Positions 18,952-54,528 of a stretch of 64,000 nucleotides of DNA are shown here, in pieces. The stretch is from an uncultured Eubacteriales bacterium (GTDB taxonomy: Bacteria > Actinomycetota > Coriobacteriia > Anaerosomatales > PHET01). The DNA is taken from positions 28,572-92,571 of the forward strand of contig CAZBLH010000003.1 of the NCBI GenBank assembly GCA_964492775.1, given 5' to 3'. Each line of letters starts with the position of its first letter. The first letter of the stretch is position 1. The position numbers were made by a program, and so were the translations under genes. Below the pieces are notes generated by a model. It was not told where the DNA came from. It ran no database searches and worked only from the letters and a program-made list of their open reading frames with translations.

Positions 18952-20115
18952 ATGAGCCCCTCTGCGCTGTTCGTCACGACCGTCCCCATAACGCTTGAAG
19001 CGTTCTTGCTGCCGTTCGCGGACCACTTCCGAACAGCCGGATGGCGCGTCGACGCGCTAGCGACCGCAGCCACCGAGAACCCGCATGTCGCCGGCCACTT
19101 TGACGAAGTATTCGACGCCACCTGGCGCCGCAACCCTCTGGCTCCCGGCAACTTCCTCGGCGCCGGGCCGCTCGTGCGACGAATCGTTCGTGACGGACAG
19201 TACGACATCGTCCACGTGCACACGCCGGTAGCAGCATTCGTCACCAGGCGTGCGTTGCGCAGCCTTCGGCGGGAGCGCTCGGCAAGCGACCGACCGGCGA
19301 TCATCTACACGGCTCACGGCTTCCACTTCTACGAGGGCCAGTCCGCGGCACCGCACGCGCTCTACCGGACGATGGAGCGAACGGCCGCACGCTGGACGGA
19401 CTTCCTCGTCACTATCAACGCCGAGGACTACGCGGCCGCACGCGCGTTCGGGACCATCGATCCCGCCAGGGTGCGTCTCATTCCGGGCATCGGGGTGGAT
19501 CCGGACGTCTACCACCCGGTGCCGCGCGAATCCACCGAGTCCGAGCGAATCCGACGCGAGCTTGGCTTGGCGCCCGAGGCGTTCATGCTCACGATGGTCG
19601 CCGAGATGGCGCCAGTGAAACGTCACGCTCACCTTTTCCGGGCTATCGCACAGGTGCGCGATCCCGGCGTTACGCTCGTCCTCGTCGGCGAGGGGCCGCT
19701 CGAGGTCGAGCTGAAGTCGCTCGCCGAGTCGCTCGGCATAGCTCCAAAGCTCAGATGGGCGGGCTATCGGAGGGACGTGCCGCTCGTGCTCGGCGCGAGC
19801 GATGCGGCGGTGCTCGTCAGCGAACGCGAAGGCCTGCCACGCTTTGTGCTGGAGGCCATGTCTTGCGCGAGGCCGGTCATCGGGACGGACACTCGGGGAA
19901 TTCGCGACGCGATCGGGTCCGATGCCGGATGGGTAGTCCCAAAGCATGACGTCCTGGCGCTAGCTCGAGCGATCGACGAGGCGGCAGGCGCACGCGAAGC
20001 GCGCCGGCGTCGGGGTGGACTCGCCCGCGAGCGGGTCCTCGCGGAGTTCTCCCTCGGCAGGGTGATCGGCGATTACGAGGAGCTATACGATGAAGCGCTC
20101 GCATCGCGCATTTGA
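18952..20115 (+). CDS. Glycosyltransferase family 4 (GT-B, group 1)
   Basis: 387 aa. C-terminal EGLPRFVLEAMSCARPVIGTD is the E-x7-E GT4 signature. This is the first gene of the island, divergent from leuD. Confidence 0.85.
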   Translation: MSPSALFVTTVPITLEAFLLPFADHFRTAGWRVDALATAATENPHVAGHFDEVFDATWRRNPLAPGNFLGAGPLVRRIVRDGQYDIVHVHTPVAAFVTRRALRSLRRERSASDRPAIIYTAHGFHFYEGQSAAPHALYRTMERTAARWTDFLVTINAEDYAAARAFGTIDPARVRLIPGIGVDPDVYHPVPRESTESERIRRELGLAPEAFMLTMVAEMAPVKRHAHLFRAIAQVRDPGVTLVLVGEGPLEVELKSLAESLGIAPKLRWAGYRRDVPLVLGASDAAVLVSEREGLPRFVLEAMSCARPVIGTDTRGIRDAIGSDAGWVVPKHDVLALARAIDEAAGAREARRRRGGLARERVLAEFSLGRVIGDYEELYDEALASRI

Positions 20116-20749
20116 TGTCGTCAAGCGCGTGGGTGACATCGTGGTCTCGGCGCTGGCTCTCGTGCTACTGAGTCCGCTGCTCGCCCTGATCGCCATCGGC
20201 GTCCTCATCACGATCGGAAGTCCTGTGCTCTTCCGGCAGGAGCGGCCCGGCAAGGGCGGACGCATCTTCACCATCTACAAGTTCCGGACGATGCGCGATG
20301 CGCAGGGCGCCACCGGTGCCGCAGCCGTCGACACCGACGCCGAGCGTCTCACGGCCTTCGGCAGACTCTTGCGCGCGAGCTCCCTCGACGAACTGCCGGA
20401 GCTGGTGAACGTGCTCAAGGGAGACATGAGCATCGTCGGCCCTCGGCCACTGCTGCCGGAGTACTTGCCGCGATACAATGAGAGGCAGGCCAGACGACAT
20501 GAGGTTCGGCCGGGAATCACCGGATGGGCGCAGGTCCATGGCAGGAACGCCCTGTCGTGGGAGGAGCGCTTCGAGATGGACGTCGAGTACGTGGACAACC
20601 GCTCGCTCGGGCTGGATCTGCGCATTCTCGCGATGACCGTCAGCACCGTGTTCTCCCGCAAGGGTGTCTCTGCCGAAGGACACGCGACGATGCCGCCGTT
20701 CGATCCCGAGGGCACCTCGACCGCCGATAAGGACGTGAACGCACGATGA
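20090..20749 (+). CDS. Small monotopic phosphoglycosyl transferase (PglC/WecP-like sugar transferase, initiating enzyme)
   Basis: 219 aa. KR..D, SP(L/V)LF.Q.R.G..G..F...KFRTM, DELP and GPRP motifs are typical of the bacterial sugar transferase family. Confidence 0.9.
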   Translation: MKRSHRAFDVVKRVGDIVVSALALVLLSPLLALIAIGVLITIGSPVLFRQERPGKGGRIFTIYKFRTMRDAQGATGAAAVDTDAERLTAFGRLLRASSLDELPELVNVLKGDMSIVGPRPLLPEYLPRYNERQARRHEVRPGITGWAQVHGRNALSWEERFEMDVEYVDNRSLGLDLRILAMTVSTVFSRKGVSAEGHATMPPFDPEGTSTADKDVNAR

Positions 20750-21363
20750 GACTGCTAGTAGTGGGAGCTGGCGGCCATGCGAAGGTCGTGATCGACGCCG
20801 CACGCCTCTGCGGATATGAGATCGCAGGTGTCATCGGCAGTGCAGATGGAACGCCTGAGGTCCTCGGAGCGCCGGTCACGACAGATCCGGCTGGCCTCAA
20901 CGCTTCTGGCTTCATCGTCGCCGTCGGCGACAACCACGAGCGCGCGCGCCTGTTCGCCGAGCACCAGAAGCTGGGACTAGAGCCTGCGAACGTGATTCAT
21001 CCGTCTGCGGTCATCGCTCAGGACGCCGAGCTCGGACCCGGCACGTTCGTGGCGGCCAACGTCACTGTGAACCCGGGAGCTCGCATCGGCAGCAATACGA
21101 TTCTCAACACCGGCTGCACCGTGGACCATGACTGCGAGATCGGCGTGCACGTGCACATCGGCCCCGGTGCCAACCTGTGCGGTGGCGTCGTCGTTGGTGA
21201 GGGAACCCTCCTTGGCGTGGGGTCGTGCGCGGTCCCACGGTCGCGTATCGGCGAGTGGGCCGTCGTCGGCGCAGGCGCCGCAGTGACGCAGAACATCCCC
21301 GACCGCGCCGTCGCGGTGGGCGTGCCCGCACGCGTGACGAGACTCGCGGGGGCGGACCAGTGA
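20746..21363 (+). CDS. NeuD/PglD-family sugar N-acetyltransferase (left-handed beta-helix)
   Basis: 205 aa. N-terminal Rossmann-like LLVVGAGGHAKVV is followed by hexapeptide repeats. The start overlaps the upstream stop. Confidence 0.88.
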   Translation: MRLLVVGAGGHAKVVIDAARLCGYEIAGVIGSADGTPEVLGAPVTTDPAGLNASGFIVAVGDNHERARLFAEHQKLGLEPANVIHPSAVIAQDAELGPGTFVAANVTVNPGARIGSNTILNTGCTVDHDCEIGVHVHIGPGANLCGGVVVGEGTLLGVGSCAVPRSRIGEWAVVGAGAAVTQNIPDRAVAVGVPARVTRLAGADQ

Positions 21364-22580
21364 CTACGGCACTCGCGATTGACGGTGGGGCGCCGGTCAG
21401 GACCACTCCCATGCCGAGGTGGCCGTCGCTCGGCGAGTCCGCTGCCGAGGCGGCTGCGGCGGTAGTCCGTTCGGGGCGCCTCAACTATTGGACCGGCGAT
21501 CGCGGCCGCGAGCTGGAGCGTGAGTACGCGAGCTCGCTCGGGCGGAAGCACGCGGTGGCCGTCGCCAACGGTACCGTGGCACTCGAGCTTGCGCTGCGCG
21601 CATTCGGGATCGGACCCGGTGACGAAGTCATCGTGCCAGCACGCACCTTCATCGCGACAGCCGGCGCCGTCGTAGCAGTCGGCGCTGCTCCCGCGATCGC
21701 CGACATCGACACCACGAGCAACAACCTGACCGCCAACACGGTCTCAGCCGTACTCACCGACCGGACGCGCGCCGTCATCCCGGTCCACCTCGGCGGATGG
21801 CCGGTTGACATGGACCCCATCATCGCGCTCGCCGATGAGCGCGGCCTCATCGTGATCGAGGACTGCGCGCAGGCCCACGGTGGCACGTATCGAGGCCGCC
21901 CCATCGGTTCGCTCGGCAGCCATGCTGCCGCGTTCTCGTTCTGCCAGGACAAGATCCTGCCGGTCGGCGACGGTGGCCTGCTGGTGCTCGACGACGATCT
22001 CGCATTCGATCGCGCTTGGAGCTACAAGGATCAGGGCAAGTCGTTCGCGAAGGTGGAGGCGCTCGACTCGGCTCGGCCGGGTGCAAGCTTTCAGTGGCTT
22101 GTCGACAGCTTCGGCTCCAACCTGCGCTTGGACGAGATCTCGGCCGCGCTCGCGCTTGACAGCCTTGCGCACCTGGACGAATGGCACGCGGCTCGAACCC
22201 GGAACGCCACGCGTGTTGCCGAGGGGCTGCGAGGTGTAGCCGGCATCAGCGTGCCCCTGCCCGAGCCCGGCAGCGAGCACGCGTTCTACCGACTCTACGG
22301 CTCAATCGACCCCGAGGCGCTCGCGGACGGATGGGACCGCGACCGGGTGCTTCAGGCAATCATCGCCGAGGGCGTCCCGGTTCAGTACGGCGCCTGCGCC
22401 GAGATCTACCGCGAGGAGGCGTTCGCACGCGCCGGGCTCGCTCCCGCCGAGCGGCTGCCGGGCGCTGCACGCGCACACGAGACCTCGATCGCGTTCTTCG
22501 TGCATCCGACGCTCGGCGATTCGGACATTGACGACACGGTCGCGGCCGTACGCAAGGTCATGGAGGCTGCGACGCGATGA
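21360..22580 (+). CDS. DegT/DnrJ/EryC1 (PglE-like) sugar aminotransferase
   Basis: Homology starts at VTTALAIDGGAPV. GTG at 21360 overlaps the upstream TGA (GTGA). The track ORF from 21225 is over-extended. AHGG.Y.G...GS and SF...K (PLP Lys) are present. Confidence 0.9.
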   Translation: MTTALAIDGGAPVRTTPMPRWPSLGESAAEAAAAVVRSGRLNYWTGDRGRELEREYASSLGRKHAVAVANGTVALELALRAFGIGPGDEVIVPARTFIATAGAVVAVGAAPAIADIDTTSNNLTANTVSAVLTDRTRAVIPVHLGGWPVDMDPIIALADERGLIVIEDCAQAHGGTYRGRPIGSLGSHAAAFSFCQDKILPVGDGGLLVLDDDLAFDRAWSYKDQGKSFAKVEALDSARPGASFQWLVDSFGSNLRLDEISAALALDSLAHLDEWHAARTRNATRVAEGLRGVAGISVPLPEPGSEHAFYRLYGSIDPEALADGWDRDRVLQAIIAEGVPVQYGACAEIYREEAFARAGLAPAERLPGAARAHETSIAFFVHPTLGDSDIDDTVAAVRKVMEAATR

Positions 22581-24445
22581 GCGTACGGGGACTCTTCGAT
22601 CGCGTCCGCGCAACTGGCCGCCTCTGGAACTCGGCGTTGATCGCGCTCGACCTGGCGGTCGTGGCGCTGGCGACCACCATCGCCTACTACGCACGTTTCG
22701 AGGGCCAAGTACCCGCGGAGTACGCGCGCTTCACGACCGATCTCATCGTAATCTCGTGTGTCTTGTACGTGGCCCTGTTCGCCTTGGTCGGCCTGTACCG
22801 TCTCGTGCTGCGCTACGTCGGCGTCGACACCCTGCTCAAGCTTCTCGGCGCGGTCTTCTTGGGTGCCGTCACGATCCTTGCCGCCAATGTCACCGCCTCG
22901 GATGCCCAAGGACTGCGCCCCGTACCTATCGGCGTCATCTTCATACAGGCAGTGCTGGTCTTCCTCGGCGCTGCAGGCACCCGGCTGGCCGCACGCGTAC
23001 TGCGATACCTGCAGGCTACGCGAGCCGGGTTCGGGCATCGCGTGCTGATCATCGGCGCTGGCAGCGCGGGCTCGCTGCTGCTGCGCGAAATCCAGGAGCA
23101 CCCGTCGCTCGAGCTGTTCGTCGTAGGCTTCCTCGACGACGACCGACGACTCATCGGTCAGACGATCAATGGCGTCCCAGTGATTGGGACCACCAGCGAG
23201 CTCAGGGAGATCGCCGAGCGCTCGCGCATCGAGGAGATCCTCGTCGCGCTACCCTCTGCGCCGAAAGAGACTGTGCGCCGCATCCTCAACACAGCCGCAG
23301 ACATCGGCATACAGACGCGCGTCATGCCGCAAATCGTGATTGCTAAGGGCTCGGTGAGCCTGCGCGACCTGCGAAACGTCGACGTGGAGGACCTGCTCGG
23401 CAGGAAGCCGACGCCCATTGATGTGGACCAGGTGCGCAACACGATCGCCGGCCGCGTGGTTGCCGTGACTGGCGCGGCGGGCTCAATCGGCTCAGAGTTG
23501 TGTCGGCAGATCGTGCGGCTCGACCCCGCCAAGCTCCTGCTTCTGGAGATCGATGAGACGCGCCTCTACGAGCTGTGGCTCGAACTCGAGGGCATGGCCC
23601 CCGGGACGAGCGAGATGCGCGTGTGCGACATCAGAGACACCCGGGCGCTTGACGTCGTATTCGCTGATGACGCGCCCTCGGTCGTTCTGCATGCGGCGGC
23701 ATACAAGCACGTCCCCGTCATGGAGCTCGCGCCCGCCGAGGCGATCAAGACCAACGTCGGCGGCACCCGCAACGTAATCGAGGCCTGCGAGCGGTTTGGG
23801 ACCGAGCGCTTCGTGCTCATCTCCACCGACAAGGCGGTTGCGCCCGTCAACATCATGGGGCTGACCAAGTCCCTTGCCGAGCGGATCATGCTGGATGCGA
23901 CGCGGCGCGGTGGACTGAACGCCGTCGCGGTGCGGTTCGGCAACGTGTTGGCCAGCCGTGGCTCGGTCGTGCCGATCTTTGAGGAGCAGCTGCGCCGCGG
24001 GGGGCCGCTCACCGTCACGCATCCTGAGGTCACGCGGTACTTCATGACGATCCCCGAGGCCGCGCGTCTCGTGCTACAAGCCCAGGCCATCGGCTCCAGC
24101 GGAGACATTTTCGTGCTCGAGATGGGCGAGCCGGTCAAGATCGTCGACCTCGCCAGGAAGATGATCGCGCTGTCAGGCGTGCCGGCCGACATCGCGTTCA
24201 TCGGACTGCGCCCGGGAGAGAAGCTGCACGAGGAGCTCGTCAACGAGTGCGAAGAGCTGCTCCCGACCGAGCGGGAGAAGATTCTGCGGGTCAGACACGT
24301 CGACGTTCTCGGCACCGACCTTGGCAGCCGCATCGATGCGCTCGTCGTGGCCGCCGAGCAAGGCAAGGCCATCGAACTGACACCGCTGATCGATCAGCTC
24401 GAACCAGGATTCTACGATCGGGAGGGCGCGGCGTGCCGAGTGTGA
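22577..24445 (+). CDS. Membrane-bound CapD/PglF-like UDP-GlcNAc 4,6-dehydratase
   Basis: 622 aa. N-terminal TM helices are followed by two Rossmann domains (GAGSAG and VTGAAGSIGSEL). YKH..ME and STDKAV are typical of the Polysacc_synt_2 family. Confidence 0.9.
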   Translation: MSVRGLFDRVRATGRLWNSALIALDLAVVALATTIAYYARFEGQVPAEYARFTTDLIVISCVLYVALFALVGLYRLVLRYVGVDTLLKLLGAVFLGAVTILAANVTASDAQGLRPVPIGVIFIQAVLVFLGAAGTRLAARVLRYLQATRAGFGHRVLIIGAGSAGSLLLREIQEHPSLELFVVGFLDDDRRLIGQTINGVPVIGTTSELREIAERSRIEEILVALPSAPKETVRRILNTAADIGIQTRVMPQIVIAKGSVSLRDLRNVDVEDLLGRKPTPIDVDQVRNTIAGRVVAVTGAAGSIGSELCRQIVRLDPAKLLLLEIDETRLYELWLELEGMAPGTSEMRVCDIRDTRALDVVFADDAPSVVLHAAAYKHVPVMELAPAEAIKTNVGGTRNVIEACERFGTERFVLISTDKAVAPVNIMGLTKSLAERIMLDATRRGGLNAVAVRFGNVLASRGSVVPIFEEQLRRGGPLTVTHPEVTRYFMTIPEAARLVLQAQAIGSSGDIFVLEMGEPVKIVDLARKMIALSGVPADIAFIGLRPGEKLHEELVNECEELLPTEREKILRVRHVDVLGTDLGSRIDALVVAAEQGKAIELTPLIDQLEPGFYDREGAACRV

Positions 24446-26274
24446 CGGAGAGCCGGTCAGCCGCATGGGAACGGGCCTCGTGGCTCGCGTTCCTTGCACT
24501 GTTCGCGGTCACGACCTTGGCCGTCGCCAAGGTTCCCTTCCTGCCGGACACGAACCCGGTCGTCGAGCGCTTCACTGGCCCCGAGTTTTCGGCGCTCACC
24601 GTCTTCACGATCATCGCCGCTATGGCATGGTTCATCAGCTGGATTCTCGGCGAGAGAGCCGCGAGGGTCACCCGAGCGCACCTCGCACTTGCCGCCACGT
24701 GTGTGGTCGGCGTCGCCTCGACGGTCATCGCAGACGTACGACCCCTCGCGCTCGTCGGCGAGAGTGGTCGCTACATGGGCCTTGTGACGTGGTTATGCCT
24801 CGCGGTAACGCTCTTACTCGCCACTCAGCTCGTGCGAACGCCGTCGCGTCTTGGGACTCTCAGCCGAGTGGTCATCATCGTCGGCGTGATCCAGGCGGTC
24901 ATCGGCCTCTCGCAGGTTCTCGGCATCGATATCTTGCGCTTCGACTTCCCTGAGCAGTACCGCTGGATGCTCGCACAGGGCGTGGGCACCGTGGGAAACC
25001 CCAACCAGTACTCCACCACACTCATCGTCCCGTTCATCCTGGCTTGTGCCGAGGCACTGTCGGCAGAATCCCGCCGGTGGCGGTACTTGGCCGTGACGGC
25101 CATGGTCGTCACCGGCATCGCTATCGTCGCTTCGGCCACCCGCGGCACATGGATCGGTGCACTGGTCGGGGCAGTCATCGTCGCGATACTCGCAGTGCGA
25201 TGCCGTCTCGCCCGCGGCAGGGCCATCTGGATCGGGGCAGCCGTTCTGGTAGGCACCGTCGCGCTCGGCTCGCTCCTCGCCGACCCCGCCATCCTCGGCA
25301 CGCGCTTCGATCAGGGCGACGCCAACGGAGGCGCAGCCGTCGAGCAACTGTCGAGTGGCAGACTTGCCCTCTGGCGCCAGGGCGTGGATGTCTTCGGCAG
25401 CCATCCAGTGCTCGGAGTCGGACCCGACTCGATTCGCAACGCCTACAAGGCGGCCGGCCATTCCACTGGAATCAGAGGAGTCTTTACTGACGACCCTCAC
25501 AGCCTGCCGCTACTCGTCGCAGTGTCGTTCGGTGCGGTCGGACTTGGGGCTGCCGCTTGGCTCCTCTGGGCCCTCTTGAGCCAGCCGATGATGCGGGTGA
25601 TCCGCGACCCCAGATCCGCGAAGGGCGAGACTTTCGCGCGCATGAACGCGTGGTTTGCCGGCTCTCTCGCCCTGCTCGTCACGTCTCTCGTGTCCGTGAT
25701 CTCGATTCCGATGATGGTCGCGGTCGCGGTTGCCGTTGGCACCGCTTACGCACCGTTCCTGGCGCGCACCGCCGAGCGAAGGGCGCCCGCATGGAGCACT
25801 GTCGTCGCAGGTGTGCTGCTCATTGGCTTCGCGGGACTCTCCATCTGGGCCTCCCTCGTGCCGCTCTACCACAACGCTCGAATCACGGCCGTGCCGCTTG
25901 AAGTGCCTCTCTCGGAAAACGATCTCGCCGTCCTCCACGCAGCTGACAGCGCGCTGCCGTGGCGCTACGAGATGCTTTCGAGGCGCACGAACAAGATCAT
26001 CGAGCAGGCGTCGTTCGAGTACTCGCAAGGGAGTTCCTCGGCTGCCGAAGCGCGTCTCGCACAGCTGCGAGAGCAGTTGGACCAGCGTGTCCAAGTGTAC
26101 CCTGCCGAGTACTTCGCCTGGTACAACCGTGCGAAAGCATGGGCCGACTCGGCAGCAATCACAGGCGACAGGGAGCTCGGCGCGCAGGCCCGCGATATCA
26201 TCGCCGAAGCGCTAGAGCGCTTCCCTGACGACCTCGAGCTCATGGCCTTGTCGATCACCGCGCGCGGGCTATGA
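24433..26274 (+). CDS. Wzy_C (O-antigen ligase-like) polytopic membrane protein with C-terminal helical-repeat (TPR-like) domain
   Basis: In-frame GTG at 24433 (or 24442) overlaps the PglF-like stop. The Wzy_C core is SATRGTWIGALVG...GRLALWRQG...HPVLGVGPDS...DPHSLPLL. The last 150 aa or so are soluble and helical. Confidence 0.8.
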   Translation: MPSVTESRSAAWERASWLAFLALFAVTTLAVAKVPFLPDTNPVVERFTGPEFSALTVFTIIAAMAWFISWILGERAARVTRAHLALAATCVVGVASTVIADVRPLALVGESGRYMGLVTWLCLAVTLLLATQLVRTPSRLGTLSRVVIIVGVIQAVIGLSQVLGIDILRFDFPEQYRWMLAQGVGTVGNPNQYSTTLIVPFILACAEALSAESRRWRYLAVTAMVVTGIAIVASATRGTWIGALVGAVIVAILAVRCRLARGRAIWIGAAVLVGTVALGSLLADPAILGTRFDQGDANGGAAVEQLSSGRLALWRQGVDVFGSHPVLGVGPDSIRNAYKAAGHSTGIRGVFTDDPHSLPLLVAVSFGAVGLGAAAWLLWALLSQPMMRVIRDPRSAKGETFARMNAWFAGSLALLVTSLVSVISIPMMVAVAVAVGTAYAPFLARTAERRAPAWSTVVAGVLLIGFAGLSIWASLVPLYHNARITAVPLEVPLSENDLAVLHAADSALPWRYEMLSRRTNKIIEQASFEYSQGSSSAAEARLAQLREQLDQRVQVYPAEYFAWYNRAKAWADSAAITGDRELGAQARDIIAEALERFPDDLELMALSITARGL

Positions 26275-35977: not shown

Positions 35978-35980
35978 CTG

Positions 35981-46651: not shown

Positions 46652-46795
46652 CGATTGTGAGTCCTTCGTTGCGAGTTTGCGGCCTCAGGCTGCGCCGCCT
46701 CAGGGACTGTTGTCAAGGTCACCCGCGGAGCAGGCCGGCCACGGAGCACGCGGGTGATACGATGCACGGCAGACTATGAGCGACCGAACGGGACC

Positions 46796-47920
46796 ATGAG
46801 CCGACTCCACATCACCCTGTGCACGCACCTTTTTCCCTCCGAGGTGACGGAGCTGTCCGGGCCGTGGCTCGCAGAGCAGGCGGACGCTCTCGCAGCTCGC
46901 GCCGATGTCTCCGTGCTCGCATGTCTTCGCCGCTGCCGAAACCGGGACGAGACGCGCGCCAGCGGCGTACGCGTGTTGTATCGGCAGACAGCCCTGGTGC
47001 CGGGTACTGGCCGGATTGCGCTGCTGGCTGCCGCGGTCCGGTACCGGGCGATCGCAGGTCGGCTCCTGGAGCGGCTCGATCCGCCGCCCCATGTGCTCCA
47101 TGCGCACTTCGGGTTCCCCGACGCCGTCGTGGTGGCAAGCGTCGCCCGACGGCTGGGGCGGCCCTGGGTCGCCACTCTGCACGGCGATGACGCGTTCTTC
47201 CTGTTACGGCGCCGTGATCCGCTCGGAGCGCTGATCCGACGGGCGCTCCATCAGGCTTCGGCGGTCGTATGTGTGAGCCCTGCGATGGGCGAAGCAGTAC
47301 GTGAGGTCCTCGGCGCGAACACCCAAGTGGAGATCATCGAGAACGGCTTCGACGACGCGCTGTTCGCACCCGGCGAGGGACCGGTCTCGGCGCGCCCGGG
47401 CGGCGTGCTGTTCGCCGGCACGCTCACGCCGGTCAAGAACGTCGACGTGCTCCTCCATGCCTACGCGTCCCTCGTGGACCCTCCCCCGCTCACGATCGTG
47501 GGAGACGGGCCTCTTCGCACGGCTCTCGAGCACCTTGCAGCTCAACTAGAGGTTGATGCTCGAGTCCTCTTTCTCGGAGTGCAGGGGCGCGAAGAGGTGG
47601 CGCGCCTGATGAGGGAGGCACGCGTACTCGTCATCCCGAGCGCCAGCGAGGGCTATGGGATGGTGGCGGCCGAGGCGCTTGCGTGCGGAACGCCCGTCGT
47701 AGCGAGCGATGTGGGCGGCCTGCCACGTATCGTGACCTCCGCTGAGGCGGGGGCACTGGTAGCGCCGGGCGACAGCGAGGCGCTTCGGGACGCGATCGAG
47801 TGCGTTCTCACGGCCGAGTGGGAGCCGAAGGCCGTCGCTGCGGCCTCGGGCGCGCGGCCCTGGCGCGAGCCTGCGCGGGAGCTGCAGGCGCTCTACGAGG
47901 ATGTTCTCAACGGGAGATGA
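46796..47920 (+). CDS. Glycosyltransferase family 4
   Basis: ATG 46796 (MSRLHITLCTHLFP). E-x7-E region is SEGYGMVAAEALACGTPVVASD. The track ORF begins at an upstream GTG (46754). Confidence 0.85.
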   Translation: MSRLHITLCTHLFPSEVTELSGPWLAEQADALAARADVSVLACLRRCRNRDETRASGVRVLYRQTALVPGTGRIALLAAAVRYRAIAGRLLERLDPPPHVLHAHFGFPDAVVVASVARRLGRPWVATLHGDDAFFLLRRRDPLGALIRRALHQASAVVCVSPAMGEAVREVLGANTQVEIIENGFDDALFAPGEGPVSARPGGVLFAGTLTPVKNVDVLLHAYASLVDPPPLTIVGDGPLRTALEHLAAQLEVDARVLFLGVQGREEVARLMREARVLVIPSASEGYGMVAAEALACGTPVVASDVGGLPRIVTSAEAGALVAPGDSEALRDAIECVLTAEWEPKAVAAASGARPWREPARELQALYEDVLNGR

Positions 47921-47961
47921 GCCGCCGGTGACGAGCAGCGCGGCATGCGCTCTCGCTGCCT

Positions 47962-49347
47962 CTACGACGCTTCGCGCTTGAAGTATCCGGAAGCCACACG
48001 AGCGAGTAGCCGCACGTCGTCGGGGGTCGGCACGAGGAGCCTGCGCAACGGCACCCCGGTGTCTCTGACCATCGTGTACAGGATGGCAACGAAGTACGTG
48101 GCGTACGAGACTGACGAGGCTACGGCTGCGCCCGCCGCCCCCACTCTCGGCACAAGCACGAAGTTTCCGAGTGCGTTCAGCACCGCGACCGCGACCGATA
48201 CCTTCCAATACACGATGCCACGCGCGACCTGATAGTAGAGGATCAGCGAGGTCAGGCCGTACAGCATCGTCCCGGGCAGGAGCAGGTAGAAGATCCTGAC
48301 GGACGGTGCGAACGTGCTTCCGAAGATGAGCGGGAGCGCGACTGGGACCACGACCACCAGGGCTGCCGCCACGACGACCGTGATCAGTATCGAAAGCCGG
48401 AGGCTACGTGCGCTGAAGTCAAGCGCGCTTTCGTGACTCACCCGCGCCGCTTGAGCCTGAATCGCCTGCCCCACGGCGTTGGGGATGTACCAGGCCAGCT
48501 CGGCGAAGCTCACGCCCACCGAGTAGAAGCCGACTGCAGCGGACCCGGAGAGCCAGCCGAGCAACAGTATGTCCTGCCGCATGTGCGTGAAGTCCGCCAA
48601 CCCGGACAGATGTGCCCTGATCGAGTGGCCCGCGCCCCTTCGCATCGCCCGGAGATCAACCCGGATCCGGCCGATACGCCCACGCCCCCAGTACGTCATG
48701 CTGGCGAGCCCGGCGAGTGATCCCGCAATCGTCGCGATGAGTACGCCGGCAACTGACAGACGCCCCGCCCACGCCAGAATCAGCGACAGCATTAGCGTCA
48801 CTGCGGTGCTGACGATCCCGGTAGCCGCCTGAGGCCCGAGTCCGCGCAACCCCACCACTACGGAACCGAACCAGGCAAGGATCAGCCCCACCGCGAATGT
48901 GGCGACCGCGAGGAGCGCGATGCGCAGTGGCATGTCGGGCACCACGGCAAGCGGCCCGAACAGCAGGAAGATGATGGGCACCGCCGTGATGGCGGTCATA
49001 ACCGATGCAAGCGCAAGGGTGTTGCCCGTCGCCACTCCTGGCGTGATCTCCTTACGCGACAGGTAGTAGAGATTCGACGTGGAGATGCCGAGATTGCCGA
49101 AGACCAGAGCGATCGCGACCGTCTGTTGCACGACCGAGAGCGCTCCTTTGCCGGCTGGGCCGAGGGACCGGGCGATGAGCGCACTCACGACGACGCTCGA
49201 CACGAGCGCGACAGCCTGTGAGATCAGCGCGACGGCAGTCCCCGACCCAAGGCGGATCTCATCCGCCTTTTCGTCTGGGCCGACATGGGGCTCCGAGGAG
49301 GTCGAAGCCGGCGGACGCGGCACATCCGAATCCTGCACCGCCGCCAT
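47962..49347 (-). CDS. Wzx-type (MOP superfamily) oligosaccharide flippase
   Basis: 461 aa, about 12-14 TM helices. It is collinear with the C-terminal part of 28265..30235 (GKGALSVVQQTVAI...STSNLYYLSRKEITPG). Confidence 0.82.
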   Translation of the reverse strand: MAAVQDSDVPRPPASTSSEPHVGPDEKADEIRLGSGTAVALISQAVALVSSVVVSALIARSLGPAGKGALSVVQQTVAIALVFGNLGISTSNLYYLSRKEITPGVATGNTLALASVMTAITAVPIIFLLFGPLAVVPDMPLRIALLAVATFAVGLILAWFGSVVVGLRGLGPQAATGIVSTAVTLMLSLILAWAGRLSVAGVLIATIAGSLAGLASMTYWGRGRIGRIRVDLRAMRRGAGHSIRAHLSGLADFTHMRQDILLLGWLSGSAAVGFYSVGVSFAELAWYIPNAVGQAIQAQAARVSHESALDFSARSLRLSILITVVVAAALVVVVPVALPLIFGSTFAPSVRIFYLLLPGTMLYGLTSLILYYQVARGIVYWKVSVAVAVLNALGNFVLVPRVGAAGAAVASSVSYATYFVAILYTMVRDTGVPLRRLLVPTPDDVRLLARVASGYFKREAS

Positions 49348-50246
49348 CAGACCATGCCTTCGGCTGTGCCGTCGTCAGAAGCGGGGGGTGTCGAGGAAGG
49401 GCCGGCATTGACCCATTCCTCAAGCGACCGCGAAGACCTCCCCCAGGGGACGAACGACAGCCTGCCTGAGTCACAATGTGCGCACCAAGGCACCGGTCGA
49501 AGCAGGAAGTCCATGATCTTCCAGCCGTCAGACGCAGACATGATGTCGCTCGAGCTCTGACCCTCATCACGCAGTCCCTGGAGGCCGAAGCGTTCCTCCA
49601 GCACATCGGAGAACGCGACGTACGCACATGGGTACAGCCGACCGTTTCTGACGATGGGACAGTTGTTGTAGCCCTGGCAGTGCCAGAAGGACTCAACCGG
49701 GTCGTGGCGTAGATCGAGATCGACCGGCAAGCGGAAGAACTCCTCCCGGAACACGGTCCACTCGACTACCGCTCCGTGCTTCCTGCCAAGCTCGTTGATC
49801 TCATCGACCGGCAGGCCGATCGGATAGTTGTCGCACAGCAGGACGATTCCCGTCTCGGCGAGGGCTCGCCACGCGAGCTCGCTCATGCGAGTGACCAGGA
49901 CGCCATTGGTCATGAGATACATCTTGAGATCGGGGAACGCGTCCTTGGGAAACGCCTTCCTTGCTGAGTACAGGAATCTCGGGAGATCAGGATGCAGGAG
50001 CGGCTCCCCTCCCAGCAGGTAGATCTGGTCAACCGCTCGGAACAACCGGGCCACGGCCCGCATCTCTGATTCGAACACGTCAGGGTCGGCGAACCACGGC
50101 CGGGCGATATTGCTGAAGTGGGCACAACCCCTGCAGTTGAGGTTGCAGTGATCGGTGATGTGGATCTCGAAGTGATGCAGGCGCGGTTTGCGTCTCAGGA
50201 TGTAGCGATCCACCCAGCGTCGAACGCGCGACTCCGTGGAGCTCAT
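49347..50246 (-). CDS. Radical SAM enzyme with C-terminal Cys-rich (SPASM/twitch-like) region
   Basis: CNLNCRGC is a CX3CX2C cluster motif, and GGEPLL is present. C-terminal cysteines are CQGYNNCP...YPC and CAHC. I prefer ATG 50246 (33 aa before the cluster) because it leaves a divergent promoter gap. The ORF is open to 50474. TGATG junction with the flippase gene. Confidence 0.75.
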   Translation of the reverse strand: MSSTESRVRRWVDRYILRRKPRLHHFEIHITDHCNLNCRGCAHFSNIARPWFADPDVFESEMRAVARLFRAVDQIYLLGGEPLLHPDLPRFLYSARKAFPKDAFPDLKMYLMTNGVLVTRMSELAWRALAETGIVLLCDNYPIGLPVDEINELGRKHGAVVEWTVFREEFFRLPVDLDLRHDPVESFWHCQGYNNCPIVRNGRLYPCAYVAFSDVLEERFGLQGLRDEGQSSSDIMSASDGWKIMDFLLRPVPWCAHCDSGRLSFVPWGRSSRSLEEWVNAGPSSTPPASDDGTAEGMV

Positions 50247-50397
50247 CACGGACTTCGGGAACGCGCGGATGTAGGCGCGACGGGCAACCGCGAACCAACG
50301 CTCGGGCACTGCCTTCCTGATCAGACCCTGAACTCGAACAAGCACGTCCGCGATCCGCTCCCGAGACTCAACGAACCGCAGGCTGCGGCCCTTCAGC

Positions 50398-51750
50398 ATG
50401 CTAGACTTCAAGGCCATGGACAGCAACGCTCGGACCACACCCGCGCGGTTGACCGACATTCTGCAGGTCAACACCTCCGATCTCAGCGGAGGCGCCGAGA
50501 AGGTATCGCTCGGCTTGCACCGCTACTACCTCCAGCGAGGCCTTCGCTCGACCCTCGCCGTGGGCTGGAAGCGCACGCTCGAGCCCGGTGTCGTGGAGAT
50601 TCCGCAGCTACCGTTCCGCAGTGCCTGGGCACGAATGTTCGGCGAGAATCGCCGAGCTGGCCTGCTGGGAACGGCAGGCCGCGCGGCCGCAGAACCACTG
50701 CGCTACCTTTCGCGGCTGGCGGGACACGAGGATTTCGGCTTTCCCGGGACGCTGCATGTCGATGAGCTCGCTCCCCGGGCTCCTCAAGTACTGCATCTGC
50801 ACAACCTGCACGGTGGCTACTTCGACATCCGGGCCTTGCCAGAACTCACAGCACGCTACCCAACCATCTACTCGCCCCACGACCCCTGGGCGCTCAGCGG
50901 GCACTGCGCGCATCCGATGGATTGCCCGAGATGGCGCACGGGATGCGATACCTGCCCGGACCTGCAGCGCTATGTTCCCATCGCGCGCGACTCGAGTGGA
51001 GCGAACTGGGCCACCAAGCGCGAGGCGTTGGAACGCAGCCGCTTCTACCTGGCATCACCGTCCAGGTGGATGCTGGACATGTTCCTCGATGCCAGGCTGG
51101 AGTCCTCCATCATCGATGCTCGGGTGATCCGCAACGGCATCGACTCGGCGGTCTTCTCGCCCGGCGACAGGGGTTCGGAGCGAAGGACGCTCGGCATCGC
51201 GGAGGACGCGACGGTCATCGTCACCTCGGCCCGAGCCGGCGTCGCCGGCGACTTCAAAGGCGCCGACATCCTCGAGGACGCATTCGAGATCGCCTCCCAA
51301 AGCGGCATCGATCGTCAGGGCATCATCGTGCTTACCCTGGGCGACACGGCGCCACCGAGAAGGGTCGGCTGCTTCCGCATCGAGTCGGTGCCGTACACGG
51401 CCGACCCGACTCGCGTGGCCAGCTACCTGCGTTCGGCCGACCTTTACGTCCACCCCTCAAGAGCCGAGAACTACTCGCTCTCGATCCTCGAGGCGCTCGC
51501 GTGTGGCACGCCGGTGGTGGCAAGCGACACTGGCGGCACCCCCGAGGTCGTAGAGGATCGCAGGGCTGCCCTGCTGTTCCCGAGTGAGGACAGCGCCGCG
51601 CTCGCCCAGGTGCTCGTCTGGCTTCTGCAGGCGGATCACCGGCTCGACGATCTTGCCGAGAAGGCTCGTGATGACGCCGCCCGCTGCTACACTCTCGAAC
51701 AGCAGGCAGAAGCGTATCTGGACTGGTACGGCCAGATAATCGGCGCGTGA
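50398..51750 (+). CDS. Glycosyltransferase family 4
   Basis: 450 aa (alternative ATG at 50416). HLHNLHGGYF, C..W..GC..CP, and PSRAENYSLSILEALACGTPVVASD (E-x7-E). Confidence 0.85.
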   Translation: MLDFKAMDSNARTTPARLTDILQVNTSDLSGGAEKVSLGLHRYYLQRGLRSTLAVGWKRTLEPGVVEIPQLPFRSAWARMFGENRRAGLLGTAGRAAAEPLRYLSRLAGHEDFGFPGTLHVDELAPRAPQVLHLHNLHGGYFDIRALPELTARYPTIYSPHDPWALSGHCAHPMDCPRWRTGCDTCPDLQRYVPIARDSSGANWATKREALERSRFYLASPSRWMLDMFLDARLESSIIDARVIRNGIDSAVFSPGDRGSERRTLGIAEDATVIVTSARAGVAGDFKGADILEDAFEIASQSGIDRQGIIVLTLGDTAPPRRVGCFRIESVPYTADPTRVASYLRSADLYVHPSRAENYSLSILEALACGTPVVASDTGGTPEVVEDRRAALLFPSEDSAALAQVLVWLLQADHRLDDLAEKARDDAARCYTLEQQAEAYLDWYGQIIGA

Positions 51751-51811
51751 CTCCGCTGCGCGCATATCGGCACGTGTCTGCCGCGCGGACGCGAAGGAGG
51801 ACAGGGCGGTC

Positions 51812-52573
51812 TTGAGGCAGGGTCGCTTCGGGATACTGATGGGCCTCGGCCCGCGGGGACTGCTTCGGGCCCTCAGGCGCAGGCTGCTCAATCCACGCTC
51901 CGGTGAGGTCGACTTCGGTGACCTGCGCTCGCTGGAGCCGGTGAGCCGGCTGTTCGGCATGGACCGAGGCACACCCATCGACCGCCACTACATCGCCGTG
52001 TTCATCGAGTCCAACAAGGACGCTGTCCGGGGCCGATGTCTCGAAGTCGCAGACCGCGCATACACGATCGAGTACGGTGGCGACTCCGTCACTCAGAGCG
52101 ATGTCCTGTACGCGGAAGGCTTCGACGACGCTCATTCTGAGCAGGCCACGGTCGTGGGAGACCTGACCGACCTGGCCTGCGTCGGCGACGGGACCTACGA
52201 CTGTGTGATCGTCACCCAGACTCTCCAGTTCATCTACGACTTCCGACAGGCGGTTCGGGAAATCGAGCGCGTCCTGAAGCCGGGCGGAACCTGCCTCTGC
52301 ACGATCTCGGCGATCAGCCAGATCAGCCGCTACGACATGGATCGTTGGGGCGAGTACTGGCGAATGACGTCGCTGGCTGCCGATCGTGTCTTCTCTGATG
52401 CCTTCGCTGGAGGCACAGTCGACGTCCGCTCCTTCGGCAACGCCCTGAGCGCCGTCGCGGGGTTGCAAGGTCTCTCGGCCGAGGAGCTGTCCGCAAGAGA
52501 GCTCGAATACCACGATCCCGACTACGAGATGCTCGTGTGCATCCGCGCGACCAAGGGTTCCCCACTGTGCTGA
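51812..52573 (+). CDS. Class I SAM-dependent methyltransferase
   Basis: 253 aa. CLEVAD...YDCVIVTQTLQFIYD...LKPGGT is typical of Methyltransf_11/23-type enzymes in glycan loci. Confidence 0.78.
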   Translation: MRQGRFGILMGLGPRGLLRALRRRLLNPRSGEVDFGDLRSLEPVSRLFGMDRGTPIDRHYIAVFIESNKDAVRGRCLEVADRAYTIEYGGDSVTQSDVLYAEGFDDAHSEQATVVGDLTDLACVGDGTYDCVIVTQTLQFIYDFRQAVREIERVLKPGGTCLCTISAISQISRYDMDRWGEYWRMTSLAADRVFSDAFAGGTVDVRSFGNALSAVAGLQGLSAEELSARELEYHDPDYEMLVCIRATKGSPLC

Positions 52574-53604
52574 GCCCAACCGCCCTCCGCGTATTGTCAC
52601 GCACGCGCAGACGCGTGCTCGGCCTGCTCGGCGGATCTGCGGTAGTGCTGATCTACCACCGGGTGGCCACCCTTGAGCGGGACCCACAGGGGCTCTCCGT
52701 CCCGCCCGCCGTCTTTCGGGAACAGATCGCGACGATCACGGAGCGGTACCCGGTCGTACCTCTGGGACACCTGGTGCGGCTGCTGGCGAGAGGTCAGCGC
52801 ATGCCCCGACGGTGCGTCTACATAACCTTCGACGACGGCTACGCCGACAACCTCATTCACGCGAAGCCTGTGCTCGAAGCTGCGGGGGCATCGGCCACGT
52901 TCTTCGTGACGACCGACCGCTTGAGCGATCCCGCGGAGCAGTGGTGGGACGAGCTCGATCGGCTGCTTCTGTCCCCTTGCAGCCTTCCCGAGAAGCTCAT
53001 TCTTCCCATCGGAGACGCGCTCGACTGCTCATCCTGCCGAGATTGGGACGCCAGCCCGGCGCGCGCCTCGGCAGGATGGACGGTGCGCGATAGCACCCGT
53101 ACGCCGAGACAAGCGCTGTACGCCGAGCTCTGCGACCGGGTGAGCCAGCAAACCCCGGCCGAGCGAAGCAGAACGCTCGAGTGCCTACGCGAGCAGATCG
53201 GCGCGACCGATGGCCCTCGAGCCGAGAACCGGCACCTCACCGCAGGCGAGATCGGCGAACTCGACACCGGCGTGACCTCTGTCGGTGTCCACACCGCGTC
53301 GCACCCGAGGTTGGCGACACTCAGCGCTTCCCAGCAGCTCGGACAGATCGCTGACAGCAAGCGGCTGCTCGAAGAGATCTGCGGAAGGACGATGGATCTG
53401 TTCTCGTACCCGTACGGCGACCCTGATTCGTACACGCCTGAGACGGTGCAGATGGTGAGACGTCTCGGTTTCGCCGGCGCGGTGGCGACCCATCATGGCA
53501 TCACCCACCGCCTCACTGACCCCTATCTCATTCCGCGGTACCCGGCTGCGGGGCTGAGCGCCCCGGAGCTGGCGGACTCGCTCGCCACGTGGTTCGGCGC
53601 GTAG
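52567..53604 (+). CDS. Polysaccharide deacetylase (NodB/CE4 family)
   Basis: GTG 52567 overlaps the upstream stop. ITFDDGYADN, HTASHPRL and FSYPYG are CE4 motifs. Confidence 0.82.
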   Translation: MLSPTALRVLSRTRRRVLGLLGGSAVVLIYHRVATLERDPQGLSVPPAVFREQIATITERYPVVPLGHLVRLLARGQRMPRRCVYITFDDGYADNLIHAKPVLEAAGASATFFVTTDRLSDPAEQWWDELDRLLLSPCSLPEKLILPIGDALDCSSCRDWDASPARASAGWTVRDSTRTPRQALYAELCDRVSQQTPAERSRTLECLREQIGATDGPRAENRHLTAGEIGELDTGVTSVGVHTASHPRLATLSASQQLGQIADSKRLLEEICGRTMDLFSYPYGDPDSYTPETVQMVRRLGFAGAVATHHGITHRLTDPYLIPRYPAAGLSAPELADSLATWFGA

Positions 53605-53610
53605 GCCCGC

Positions 53611-54417
53611 CTAAGTCCGATTGCGGTGAACGACGCCGTAAGCCCAGATGTTCAGGCGATGCCGCAGATAGCGTAACCGCTCCCAAACCGGGTTCGCCCC
53701 GTACGCTACCCTGATGCGCTCCCTCTCCCGGTTCGCGGCCGCGGTGTCGGTATTGCACACCCCGCCGAGCCGGAACTGCGCTATGACAGCCGCCACCCGG
53801 ATCGCGCGCACACCCGCCGAAAGAGCGCGCAGCACGAAATCGTAGTCGGCGAGGATCCGGTACCGCAGGTCGTAGCCGCCAAGCTCACGGTACACGCTCG
53901 CCCGGACAAGAAGCGACTGGTGGCACATGGGCAACCAGTCCGGACGGCCGCCAGGCTCCACCTCGGCAGCTCGGTCGATGCGGAGGGGCTCCCCCTCCTC
54001 CGAGATGATCTCGACATCCCCGTAGACCAGGCCCGCGTCCGGATGCGTGGTCGCCGCCTCGACGATGAGCTCGATCGCTCGGGGCATGTACCGGTCGTCG
54101 CTGTTGAGCAGCCCGATCAGCTCGCCGGAGCACAGCGCGATGCCCTTGTTCATGGCGTCGTAGATGCCCGTGTCGGGCTCGGAGATCCAACGCAGACGAC
54201 CGGCAAATCGTGGCTCGAAGGAGCGGATGACGTCCAGCGTACCGTCGGTCGAGCCACCGTCGACGATGATGTACTCGATCTCGGGATAGGTCTGGCCGAG
54301 CACCGATTCCATGGCCTCAGCCAGATACCGATCGGAGTTGAAGCAGACGGTCACCACCGAAACAAGCGGCTTCTTGACGGTGTGCTCAGTTCCGTTGTCA
54401 CGTGTCGAGCTTCTCAT
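53611..54417 (-). CDS. Glycosyltransferase family 2
   Basis: ATG 54417 (MRSSTRDNG..). VSVVTVCFNSDRYL...IIVDGGSTDGT...SDD. The track ORF extends to 54495. Confidence 0.85.
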   Translation of the reverse strand: MRSSTRDNGTEHTVKKPLVSVVTVCFNSDRYLAEAMESVLGQTYPEIEYIIVDGGSTDGTLDVIRSFEPRFAGRLRWISEPDTGIYDAMNKGIALCSGELIGLLNSDDRYMPRAIELIVEAATTHPDAGLVYGDVEIISEEGEPLRIDRAAEVEPGGRPDWLPMCHQSLLVRASVYRELGGYDLRYRILADYDFVLRALSAGVRAIRVAAVIAQFRLGGVCNTDTAAANRERERIRVAYGANPVWERLRYLRHRLNIWAYGVVHRNRT

Positions 54418-54528
54418 AGCACCTGGCAGGTCGCCTGTCTTCGCGAGCATCAACCATGATTCTACTCGCGCGCGCGCCCGTTGCCGAACTATCAACCCAG
54501 ACAGCCCATTCTAAGGGACCGAATGCGT

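Follow-up and report, generated by a model that had tools for sequence, protein, structure and literature searches.

A multihaem cytochrome locus of uncultured Coriobacteriia coupled to glycan-assembly genes and to a WaaL-like/TPR candidate oligosaccharyltransferase

We analysed a stretch of 64,000 nucleotides (the window) from an uncultured Eubacteriales bacterium placed in the Anaerosomatales, class Coriobacteriia, phylum Actinomycetota (assembly GCA_964492775.1, contig CAZBLH010000003.1, positions 28,572 to 92,571), in which genes for multihaem cytochromes lie among genes for glycan assembly. To judge by gene order, the coupling of the two gene sets is genuine, and its conservation among relatives goes well beyond chance; the most specific element of this coupling is a WaaL-like membrane protein with a C-terminal TPR-like domain, the gene of which follows a multihaem cytochrome gene. 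We give an even chance to the reading that the window carries an extracellular electron transfer (EET) locus of monoderm Coriobacteriia fused with lipid-linked glycan assembly, the cytochrome system of which would be protein-glycosylated.

Genes from 18.9 to 60.4 kb, 31 in number, were compared with Pfam. Two clusters of glycan genes, module A (18952-35977) and module B (44137-54495), had been described in an earlier note on this DNA as paralogous modules bracketing a cytochrome core, and all the glycan gene types named there were also assigned by Pfam. The layout is, however, one in which cytochrome blocks alternate with glycan blocks (cytochromes, glycan module B, cytochromes, glycan module A), because the gene 38386-39750, which has no Pfam match, proved to be a cytochrome gene with a paralogue (54590-55885) beyond module B.

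Results

A cytochrome cassette shared by Coriobacteriia

The cassette at 35981-44101 is encoded on the reverse strand. It begins with a TPR protein with one transmembrane helix (43211-44101) and an NHL beta-propeller with a transmembrane helix at each end (41939-43210), which are followed by four cytochrome genes. The first of these, cyt3 (39982-41733), encodes a protein in which an N-terminal module of 7 haems is joined to a copy of the hexahaem module, with 12 CxxCH and 2 variant sites (Pfam, BLASTP and motifs); its C-terminal half is 70% identical over 372 aa to the product of 38386-39750, a secreted hexahaem-family cytochrome recognised by its motifs and signal peptide (38386-39645). The product of cyt2 (37249-38205) is a 12-haem cytochrome (12 CxxCH) with a NapC/NirT/NrfH-like N-terminal membrane anchor that passes Cytochrom_NNT of Pfam (30.4 bits, cut-off 24.1), stays below the cut-off of the NCBIfam NrfH model (30.5 bits) and finds marginal c7 hits only among PDB sequences; from these likenesses it is a candidate quinol oxidase. 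Finally, cyt1 (35981-37252) encodes a Cytochrome_C7 protein anchored to the membrane by two hydrophobic helices, with 11 CxxCH and one Cx4CH. Counted as CxnCH sites, the genes across 35981-41733 hold 12 (cyt1), 12 (cyt2), 7 (hexahaem) and 14 (cyt3), and signal peptides or transmembrane helices are present on the multihaem cytochromes of the window.

The NHL protein has about 100 homologues, and those with a source label come from metagenome-assembled genomes (MAGs) of Coriobacteriia or Actinomycetota. A genome scan seeded with the NHL alignment yielded 77 loci, nearly all in MAGs of Coriobacteriia, Actinomycetota or Anaerosomatales, and the six-frame open reading frames (ORFs) of the relatives were labelled by phmmer, with the window proteins as queries, and by their CxxCH counts. 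We found a recurring unit, in about 100 Coriobacteriia loci, made up of TPR, NHL, a secreted cytochrome of about 6 haems, a 12-haem NapC/NirT-like cytochrome and a cytochrome of about 11 haems. A TPR gene precedes the NHL gene in 80 of 91 cases and a secreted multihaem gene follows it in 70 of 91, while cyt1 is paired with cyt2 in 57 loci.

A WaaL-like gene directly downstream of a cytochrome gene

Wherever a co-directional Wzy_C gene comes straight after the ~11-haem cytochrome gene, it is the orthologue of the window gene 32141-33991, here called Wzy_C 2 (244-578 bits). In a reciprocal test, a metagenome scan was seeded with the Wzy_C 2 family and 19 true members were retrieved. All 16 members with upstream sequence have cyt2 and then cyt1 directly upstream and co-directional; the remaining 3 start at contig ends and are followed by GT2, GT2 and CE4-Wzx genes, as in the window. 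The gap between cyt1 and Wzy_C 2 measures 1-7 nt in several of the relatives' loci, an arrangement that, by its spacing, looks operon-like. The same order of Wzy_C 2, GT2, GT2 and CE4-Wzx is repeated in L035, L083, L085, L088 and L104 (such handles denote loci of relatives), and L104, whose Wzy_C is 68% identical, also has the inverted gene, Wzy_C+TPR, that stands between cyt1 and Wzy_C 2 in the window.

Linkage was then counted in the 42 loci of at least 15 kb, of which 22 have a Wzy_C gene no more than 3 kb from a gene of the cassette and 25 have any detected glycan gene at that distance; both counts are lower bounds on linkage, only the window proteins having been used as queries. A comparison of radii from 3 to 10 kb told us little, since each locus consists mostly of cassette genes. 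At the borders of cassettes, three different subfamilies of Wzy_C were each met with repeatedly. Besides that of Wzy_C 2, members of the Wzy_C+TPR subfamily flank cassettes in L014, L016, L023, L028, L030, L032 and L056, and the best matches to Wzy_C 1 (24247-26274) follow a GT4-phosphoglycosyl transferase (PGT) pair just upstream of TPR-NHL cassettes (L051, L075, L076 and L081); the equivalent protein of L052 scores best against Wzy_C+TPR.

Other parts of the glycan gene set travel with the cassette as well. In L072 and L082, with about 31% NHL identity, the order is cyt1, Wzy_C, an inverted PglF-DegT-PglD-PGT-GT4 block and TPR-NHL, the block matching the window genes 18952-24445 with 484-842 bits. 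In these two loci the orthologous sugar block thus has cytochrome units on both sides; in L021, L037 and L078 it lies beside the cassette. In relatives with 63-79% NHL identity, genes like those of module B are retained upstream of TPR-NHL, and orthologues of module B were found there in L001, L004, L011, L089, L090, L094, L095, L106, L107 and L108. The earlier note had located the physical coupling of glycan and multihaem cytochrome genes in the GT4 and Wzy_C genes immediately upstream of TPR-NHL in the window (GT4_B, 44137-45261; Wzy_C 4, 45311-46651). The coupling itself is borne out by the relatives, but this pair was rejected as its conserved link, because relatives whose NHL protein is 74-79% identical do not have it: upstream of TPR, a GT4_B orthologue was found in L001 and L107 and not in L106 or L108, and Wzy_C 4 is absent from the close relatives L001, L106, L107 and L108.

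Predicted structure of Wzy_C 2

Wzy_C 2 (32141-33991, reverse strand) is, by its Pfam Wzy_C domain and its AlphaFold2 (AF2) model, a WaaL-like membrane transferase that ends in a TPR-like domain at its C-terminus, and a candidate O-oligosaccharyltransferase (O-OTase) or ligase. The AF2 model, built with 25 homologues, reached a predicted local distance difference test (pLDDT) score of 87.4, and its only significant match among PDB structures was WaaL (7TPG; E 3.5e-5, probability 1.0), while a search of PDB sequences with Wzy_C 2 returned nothing. The C-terminal ~145 residues (~469-613) form helical repeats that match the TPR superhelices of Tom70, APC and OGT. Four hydrophobic helices follow the catalytic loop, which would place the TPR-like domain at the outer side of the membrane. 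R281, H337, S338, G348 and G351 are invariant across the 25 homologues. The motif H[NSQ]x9Gxx[GTY], which we take to be the conserved periplasmic-loop His/Arg motif of the WaaL O-antigen ligase, agrees with these residues and was found in 24247-26274 and 32141-33991.

The Wzy_C 2 family is small, with 27 hits, and those few that bear a taxon label are from Coriobacteriia or Actinomycetota. By Pfam the window encodes a total of 4 Wzy_C proteins, one of which has only 446 aa, whereas the cytochrome-linked Wzy_C proteins measure 616-675 aa and have C-terminal TPR domains. None of the Wzy_C, cytochrome, NHL and TPR proteins of the window received a name from NCBIfam above the cut-off.

The secreted hexahaem family

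The secreted hexahaem family has 95 homologues, in which six haem sites are invariant (four CxxCH, one Cx3CH and one Cx4CH). Six further histidines are invariant or nearly so, indicating a bis-His hexahaem. The gene 38386-39750 contains 5 CxxCH, one Cx3CH and one Cx4CH, that is, the six family-invariant sites and one extra CxxCH, and the window holds three copies of the hexahaem module, one of them fused into the 14-site cyt3. The protein 38386-39645 matched nothing in Pfam, NCBIfam or the PDB sequences (E <= 1, including any deposited OmcE, OmcS or OmcZ). An AF2 model from a 36-sequence alignment had a mean pLDDT of 55 and produced only noise in a Foldseek search of the PDB (best E 2.5), so that no statement is possible on an OmcS-like or OmcE-like fold. 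Two further features were seen in the family: the mature N-terminus is conserved as KYAGY, directly after the predicted signal-peptide cleavage site (A|KYAGY), and a conserved Ala/Pro/Ser-rich stretch in mid-protein, LRAS-x-PA-x-S-T/S-T/S-LDQ, is a possible O-glycosylation site.

Glycan module A

Module A begins with a five-gene bacillosamine-like sugar block on the forward strand (18952-24445). It consists of a GT4 (18952-20115), a small PglC-like PGT (Bac_transf, 20090-20749), a NeuD/PglD-type acetyltransferase (PglD_N and Hexapep, 20746-21363), a PglE-like DegT aminotransferase (21225-22580) and a PglF-like membrane dehydratase (Polysacc_synt_2, 22577-24445). The acetyltransferase also passes the NCBIfam model NeuD/PglB/VioB (212.5 against a cut-off of 160.8), which is a subfamily-level model, and the dehydratase, the aminotransferase and the PGT all stay below the NCBIfam equivalog cut-offs; on these scores the product could be another 4-amino-4,6-dideoxy-hexose. 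The forward strand continues with Wzy_C 1 (24247-26274), a protein of 675 aa with 66.7 bits to Wzy_C.

On the reverse strand, Wzy_C 2 is followed downstream by a GT2 (31155-32144), a second GT2 (30232-31158), the CE4-Wzx fusion (28265-30235), a third GT2 (27382-28377) and a GT4, here GT4_A (26255-27382). The fusion has a complete CE4 domain (residues 2-199) at the N-terminus of Wzx, preceded by neither a signal peptide nor a membrane helix, which suggests, on the strength of the domain order, that a lipid-linked sugar is deacetylated on the cytoplasmic face right before flipping; a similar CE4-Wzx fusion match was seen in L088. The third Wzy_C protein of the module, Wzy_C+TPR (34070-35977, forward strand), has 635 aa and scores 61.4 bits to Wzy_C and 42.1 bits to TPR_9, and a PDB sequence search with it found designed TPR proteins only. 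Its gene stands in inverted orientation between those of cyt1 and Wzy_C 2 and runs towards cyt1, leaving 3 nt between the stop codons (35977/35981). These 3 nt leave no space for terminators, so that the two transcripts should overlap in antisense.

Module B and the second cytochrome block

Module B contains GT4 genes, one Wzy_C, a Wzx, a radical SAM protein, a methyltransferase, a CE4 and a GT2. GT4_B and Wzy_C 4 (446 aa) are encoded on the reverse strand, upstream of TPR-NHL and co-directional with it. Beyond them, in order of rising coordinates, lie a GT4 (46754-47920, forward), the Wzx (47962-49347, reverse), the radical SAM protein (49347-50474, reverse), another GT4 (50398-51750, forward), the methyltransferase (51812-52573, forward), the CE4 (52537-53604, forward) and the GT2 (53611-54495, reverse). 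The radical SAM protein, which is below the cut-off of every NCBIfam model, recurs among cassette-adjoining glycan genes of relatives (L004, 1090-2064; L021, 4952-7123). Its role, as far as the family tells, is possibly sugar modification or the maturation of cytochromes or peptides.

The genes beyond module B are all on the reverse strand. The secreted hexahaem paralogue (54590-55885) has 7 sites and is 63% identical to 38386-39750. Next to it is a small C_GCAxxG/split-Soret-like cytochrome with 2 sites (55949-56599), a Cys-rich protein with weak C_GCAxxG_C_C and weak split-Soret matches (Pfam and NCBIfam) and a CxxCH at its extreme C-terminus; a C_GCAxxG-type gene adjoins the hexahaem paralogue both in the window and in L003 (15422-15985). 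A soluble TPR protein (57008-57718) and a cell-wall-bound surface protein (57781-60411) complete the block. The latter has 876 aa, with RCC1 repeats, two Big_5 domains and three CWB2 wall-binding repeats, and lies 3.3 kb from module B. In L003, the hexahaem gene, the small C_GCAxxG cytochrome gene and the gene for an RCC1 protein come directly after cyt1, the RCC1/Big_5 homologue standing at 16586-19213 together with a TPR gene. By this order, the window genes 54590-60411 belong to the same cytochrome system, and the RCC1-CWB2 protein may serve in the surface apparatus of EET and not as a generic S-layer protein.

Module paralogy, transcription signals and composition

BLASTP comparisons agreed with the two clear cases of paralogy that the earlier note had named. 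GT4_A and GT4_B are 42% identical over 359 aa (E 1e-82), and the Wzx pair is 38% identical over 425 collinear residues (E 2e-76). The CE4 domains, also listed there for each module, are indeed present in both, but they share no BLASTP match at E 1e-3, were rejected as paralogues and differ in that the CE4 of module A is fused to Wzx. The gene order of the two modules is not collinear, which makes them two distinct glycan clusters sharing old paralogues and not a duplicated module. The picture of two paralogous modules around a cytochrome core was thus overstated: only two gene pairs are clearly paralogous, the order differs and cytochrome genes extend beyond module B.

The gaps upstream of TPR-NHL, of 35 nt (44102-44136) and 49 nt (45262-45310), are of the lengths given earlier and contain no significant RNA structure (z = -0.4 and -1.0). 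The hairpin noted at 41867-41902 was confirmed at 41865-41904 (reverse strand), 3' of the NHL gene; it is very stable, with an 18 bp stem, -39.4 kcal/mol and z = -8.0, none of 200 shuffles folded as well, and its tail reads UUUGUG. It probably acts as a terminator or an attenuator. The first cytochrome gene is preceded by a promoter-like site, TTCACA-18-AATAAT with a TG upstream of it (41831-41802, reverse strand). Further hairpins on the reverse strand lie 3' of cyt3 (39937-39966), 3' of the hexahaem gene (38314-38368, terminator-like) and 3' of the hexahaem paralogue (54528-54560). As judged from these signals, the likely transcription units are Wzy_C-GT4-TPR-NHL, cyt3, hexahaem, and cyt2-cyt1. 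Co-transcription of glycan and electron-transfer genes, as previously put forward, is therefore probable with the TPR and NHL accessory genes and not with the cytochrome genes, from which the hairpin and the promoter-like site separate them. The hairpins behind the NHL and secreted-cytochrome genes have in common GC-rich stems of 13-18 bp, z-scores of -3 to -8 where tested and little or no U-tail; they may be actinobacterial-type terminators or mRNA-stabilising elements of highly expressed genes.

The window is high-GC chromosomal DNA of about 65% GC, with his, dnaE and leu genes at 0-19 kb and a LytTR/histidine-kinase pair at 61-63 kb. GC content stays at 0.62-0.69 along the whole window. GC at third codon positions (GC3) is 0.70-0.87 in the locus genes (0.75-0.87 once the outlying TPR gene 57008-57718 is left out), compared with 0.79-0.89 in the his, leu and dnaE genes, and the tetranucleotide correlation between the locus and the first 18.9 kb is 0.88-0.97. 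A tRNA gene search of the window found none, an Rfam scan of the whole window at the gathering threshold had 0 hits, and the Pfam scans of the window proteins turned up neither an integrase nor a transposase domain. The horizontal origin contemplated before left no island signature in GC, GC3 or tetranucleotide usage, and a genomic island was rejected: composition is not deviant, and there is neither a tRNA or integrase border nor a mobile-element gene.

Discussion

Relation to known systems

The passage of electrons through the thick Gram-positive wall is poorly understood. Clusters of multihaem genes have been described in cultured Anaerosomatales, of which one cultured strain reduces Fe(III) (PMC9686372), and EET clusters with NHL and TPR proteins in Dethiobacter alkaliphilus, being also discussed for Thermincola and Carboxydothermus; the NHL and TPR proteins are proposed to help cytochrome assembly at the surface (PMC10376724). 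The window has in common with these Gram-positive clusters a CymA/NapC-like quinol oxidase candidate (cyt2), several exported or anchored multihaem cytochromes and adjoining NHL and TPR genes. No word beginning with 'glycosyl' occurs in the Anaerosomatales paper (PMC9686372), and in the literature searched 'O-antigen ligase' was never found together with 'multiheme', nor with 'c-type cytochromes' plus 'extracellular electron transfer'. The linkage to Wzy_C genes is therefore new for Gram-positive EET clusters.

Coupling of glycan and cytochrome genes as such, which the earlier note did not know as a described system, has a precedent in Desulfuromonadia. There, OmcE nanowire clusters, made up of two multihaem cytochromes, two beta-propeller lipoproteins, OmcE and a beta-barrel, commonly precede 15-70 glycosylation genes, according to a 2025 preprint, in a manner that matches glycosylated versus bare filaments, and the adjoining genes encode GT2, GT4 and GT39 enzymes, methyltransferases, exporters, TPR proteins and regulators (bioRxiv 10.1101/2025.10.22.684050). 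OmcS and OmcE filaments are glycosylated, as seen by cryo-EM (PMC9473688); the literature searched describes no enzyme that attaches these glycans, and the role of the glycan (filament insulation) is proposed only. The window shares with the OmcE clusters two multihaem cytochromes, one or more beta-propellers, a small secreted multihaem protein and adjoining GT2, GT4, methyltransferase, sugar exporter, TPR and regulator genes. It differs in that its host is probably a monoderm actinobacterium and no beta-barrel gene was seen, that its propeller is of the NHL type and transmembrane-anchored whereas those of the OmcE clusters are lipoproteins, that its secreted subunit is a hexahaem of ~390 aa without a PDB sequence match whereas OmcE is a tetrahaem, and that WaaL-like/TPR genes sit inside the cytochrome operon. 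The locus is an analogous, non-homologous monoderm counterpart of the OmcE clusters, set apart by the dedicated WaaL-like/TPR gene within the cytochrome operon.

With respect to the glycan genes, O-OTases carry a Wzy_C domain, WsfB and PglL carry a C-terminal TPR (PMC2943079), and the genes of TfpO, TfpM and PglS adjoin the genes of their substrates (PMC12645811). Wzy_C 2 resembles O-OTases (PglL, TfpO/PilO, PglS and TfpM; WsaB and WsfB) in its Wzy_C/WaaL-like domain and in the predicted flipped donors linked to undecaprenyl diphosphate, in a C-terminal TPR as in WsfB and PglL, and, should cyt1 be its substrate, in a gene place next to the substrate gene, as for TfpO, TfpM and PglS. It differs in that the acceptor would be a multihaem cytochrome and not a pilin or S-layer protein, and in that no PglL_A or Wzy_C_2 domain was detected. 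WaaL itself has the lipid A-core of a diderm as acceptor, whereas those homologues that have a source name are labelled Coriobacteriia or Actinomycetota and a CWB2 protein is encoded nearby, which argues for a monoderm host without lipopolysaccharide. The sugar block is comparable to the pgl pathway for di-N-acetylbacillosamine (PglF, E, D, C and A in Campylobacter and Neisseria), with the same five enzyme types in one block (4,6-dehydratase, aminotransferase, acetyltransferase, small monotopic PGT and GT4), and it differs in that only the window acetyltransferase passes a curated NCBIfam cut-off. In comparison with Wzx/Wzy polysaccharide loci, the window has Wzx twice and Wzy_C four times, without Wzz/PCP or LytR-CpsA-Psr (LCP) genes at 18.9-60.4 kb.

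Proposed mechanism and alternatives

The window has the gene set for two Wzx-type pathways, one of which starts with the bacillosamine-like block and its small PGT. If the cytochromes are glycosylated, an oligosaccharide would be assembled by this block and several GT2 and GT4 enzymes on undecaprenyl phosphate, on the inner side of the membrane, then modified or trimmed by the CE4, methyltransferase and radical SAM enzymes, flipped by Wzx and then transferred en bloc by the WaaL-like/TPR enzymes at the outer face. The acceptors would most probably be secreted or membrane cytochromes or the wall around them, and perhaps other surface proteins, with the TPR domains and the TPR and NHL proteins acting as docking or assembly scaffolds. 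Glycosylation might serve to solubilise, protect, stabilise, insulate or position the cytochromes in the thick wall, as proposed for OmcS and OmcE filaments. A bolder version, which we regard as doubtful, is that monoderm Actinomycetota build an extracellular, glycosylated polymer of cytochromes, or a conduit spanning the wall, from subunits of the hexahaem family and that Wzy_C 2 is an O-OTase dedicated to cytochromes; this would be, if true, the first genetically defined machinery glycosylating EET cytochromes. The locus family offers a specific candidate, a small WaaL-like/TPR clade found in relatives only directly after a cytochrome gene, with genes for sugar building and flipping alongside. 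Were the cytochromes indeed glycosylated, this would give a genetic handle on their glycosylation, a genomic marker of such EET in uncultured Coriobacteriia (subsurface, sediment and termite-gut samples) and parts with which to engineer glycosylated conductive proteins.

Several points weigh against cytochrome glycosylation, which is proposed here on gene content and gene order. The Wzy_C family also holds polymerases and ligases for non-protein acceptors, and Pfam gave neither PglL_A nor Wzy_C_2 for any of the four Wzy_C proteins, which are therefore not of the PglL/PglS class; as TfpO and TfpM are without these domains too, only those classes are excluded. In 17 of the 42 long loci no glycan gene was detected near the cassette (loci of this kind being L003, L017, L024, L033, L036, L039, L067 and L077), so the link is not obligatory. 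Cytochrome genes of relatives apart from glycan genes, which the earlier note had named as contrary evidence, do therefore exist, but in a minority, as a glycan gene was found in the other 25. Moreover, the loci are phylogenetically related and the counts are not independent events, and the case for enrichment rests on the reciprocal 16/16 adjacency, with no calibrated null for the number of Wzy_C genes per genome. In the window itself, hairpins divide the cytochrome genes into separate units and the inverted gene parts cyt1 from Wzy_C 2.

A rather unlikely explanation of the same genes is a cell-wall-linked or secreted polysaccharide, such as a secondary wall polymer or matrix, that embeds or anchors the cytochromes and the CWB2 protein, with the Wzy_C proteins as its polymerases or ligases. 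Precedents are the Xap polysaccharide, which anchors cytochromes in Geobacter, and PS-II, which anchors CWB2 proteins in Clostridioides. The presence of two Wzx and four Wzy_C proteins, one of them (446 aa) of polymerase-typical size, is in keeping with this, as is the RCC1/Big_5 protein with three CWB2 repeats beside the second cytochrome block; the secreted hexahaem cytochromes have no sortase or lipobox signal in their sequence and so need to be retained somehow, and the conserved linkage fits a wall polysaccharide as well as it fits protein glycosylation. Nevertheless, neither Wzz/PCP nor LCP was found by Pfam among the 31 genes at 18.9-60.4 kb, though such genes could lie elsewhere in the genome, a length of 616-675 aa plus a C-terminal TPR is the architecture of the O-OTases WsfB and PglL and not of a Wzy polymerase, and the strict operonic place after a cytochrome gene resembles that of substrate-adjacent O-OTases.

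It seems improbable to us that the locus serves general surface or S-layer protein glycosylation, with other envelope targets (for example, the RCC1-CWB2 protein) and a place near the cytochromes that merely reflects a shared envelope neighbourhood. In Gram-positive S-layer glycan clusters, genes for Wzy_C O-OTases do adjoin the S-layer gene (PMC2943079), the CWB2 protein is close to module B, and the cassette-adjoining glycan content varies between relatives, as it would in a variable surface-glycan locus. Yet in L003, where glycan genes are not nearby, the RCC1 protein goes with the cytochromes, the Wzy_C 2 family adjoins cyt1 in all 16 cases irrespective of any other neighbour, and each of three Wzy_C subfamilies recurs at the cassette borders. 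Very improbable is a horizontally acquired bipartite island that arose from a glycan module duplicated around a cytochrome core. The GT4 and Wzx paralogue pairs and the different glycan gene content of close relatives would agree with it, but GC, GC3 and tetranucleotide usage are even across the locus and the adjoining his, leu and dnaE genes, tRNA genes and integrase or transposase domains were not found in the searches described, and the modules are not collinear, with CE4 domains devoid of detectable similarity. In addition, an identity of 38-42% means an ancient divergence, and the GT4 paralogues have separate cassette-adjoining orthologues, that of GT4_B in L001 and that of GT4_A in L030. 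Chance linkage takes the remainder.

Further observations in relatives

A protein of about 515 aa that is absent from the window is encoded just after the ~11-haem cytochrome, often before Wzy_C+TPR, in L015-L018, L020, L021, L030, L037 and L069 (for example, L016, 15136-16671). Its N-terminal part is a polytopic membrane domain, and its C-terminal domain looks, to the eye, like a spermidine synthase or a methyltransferase.

Many of the loci in which a WaaL-like gene follows cyt1 (L011, L012, L014, L087, L089-L095 and L097-L098) are from MAGs or samples with the shared identifiers Ga0123353/54/57 and Ga0099364, and the isolate names Lab288, Emb289 and Th196 look like those of a termite-gut dataset, which would hint at EET-type cytochromes in gut Coriobacteriia.

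Giant multihaem ORFs precede some cassettes in more distant Coriobacteriia: in L044, L050, L058, L075 and L081, ORFs with 41-61 CxxCH, followed by ORFs of 14 and of 10-11 haems, lie upstream of TPR-NHL.

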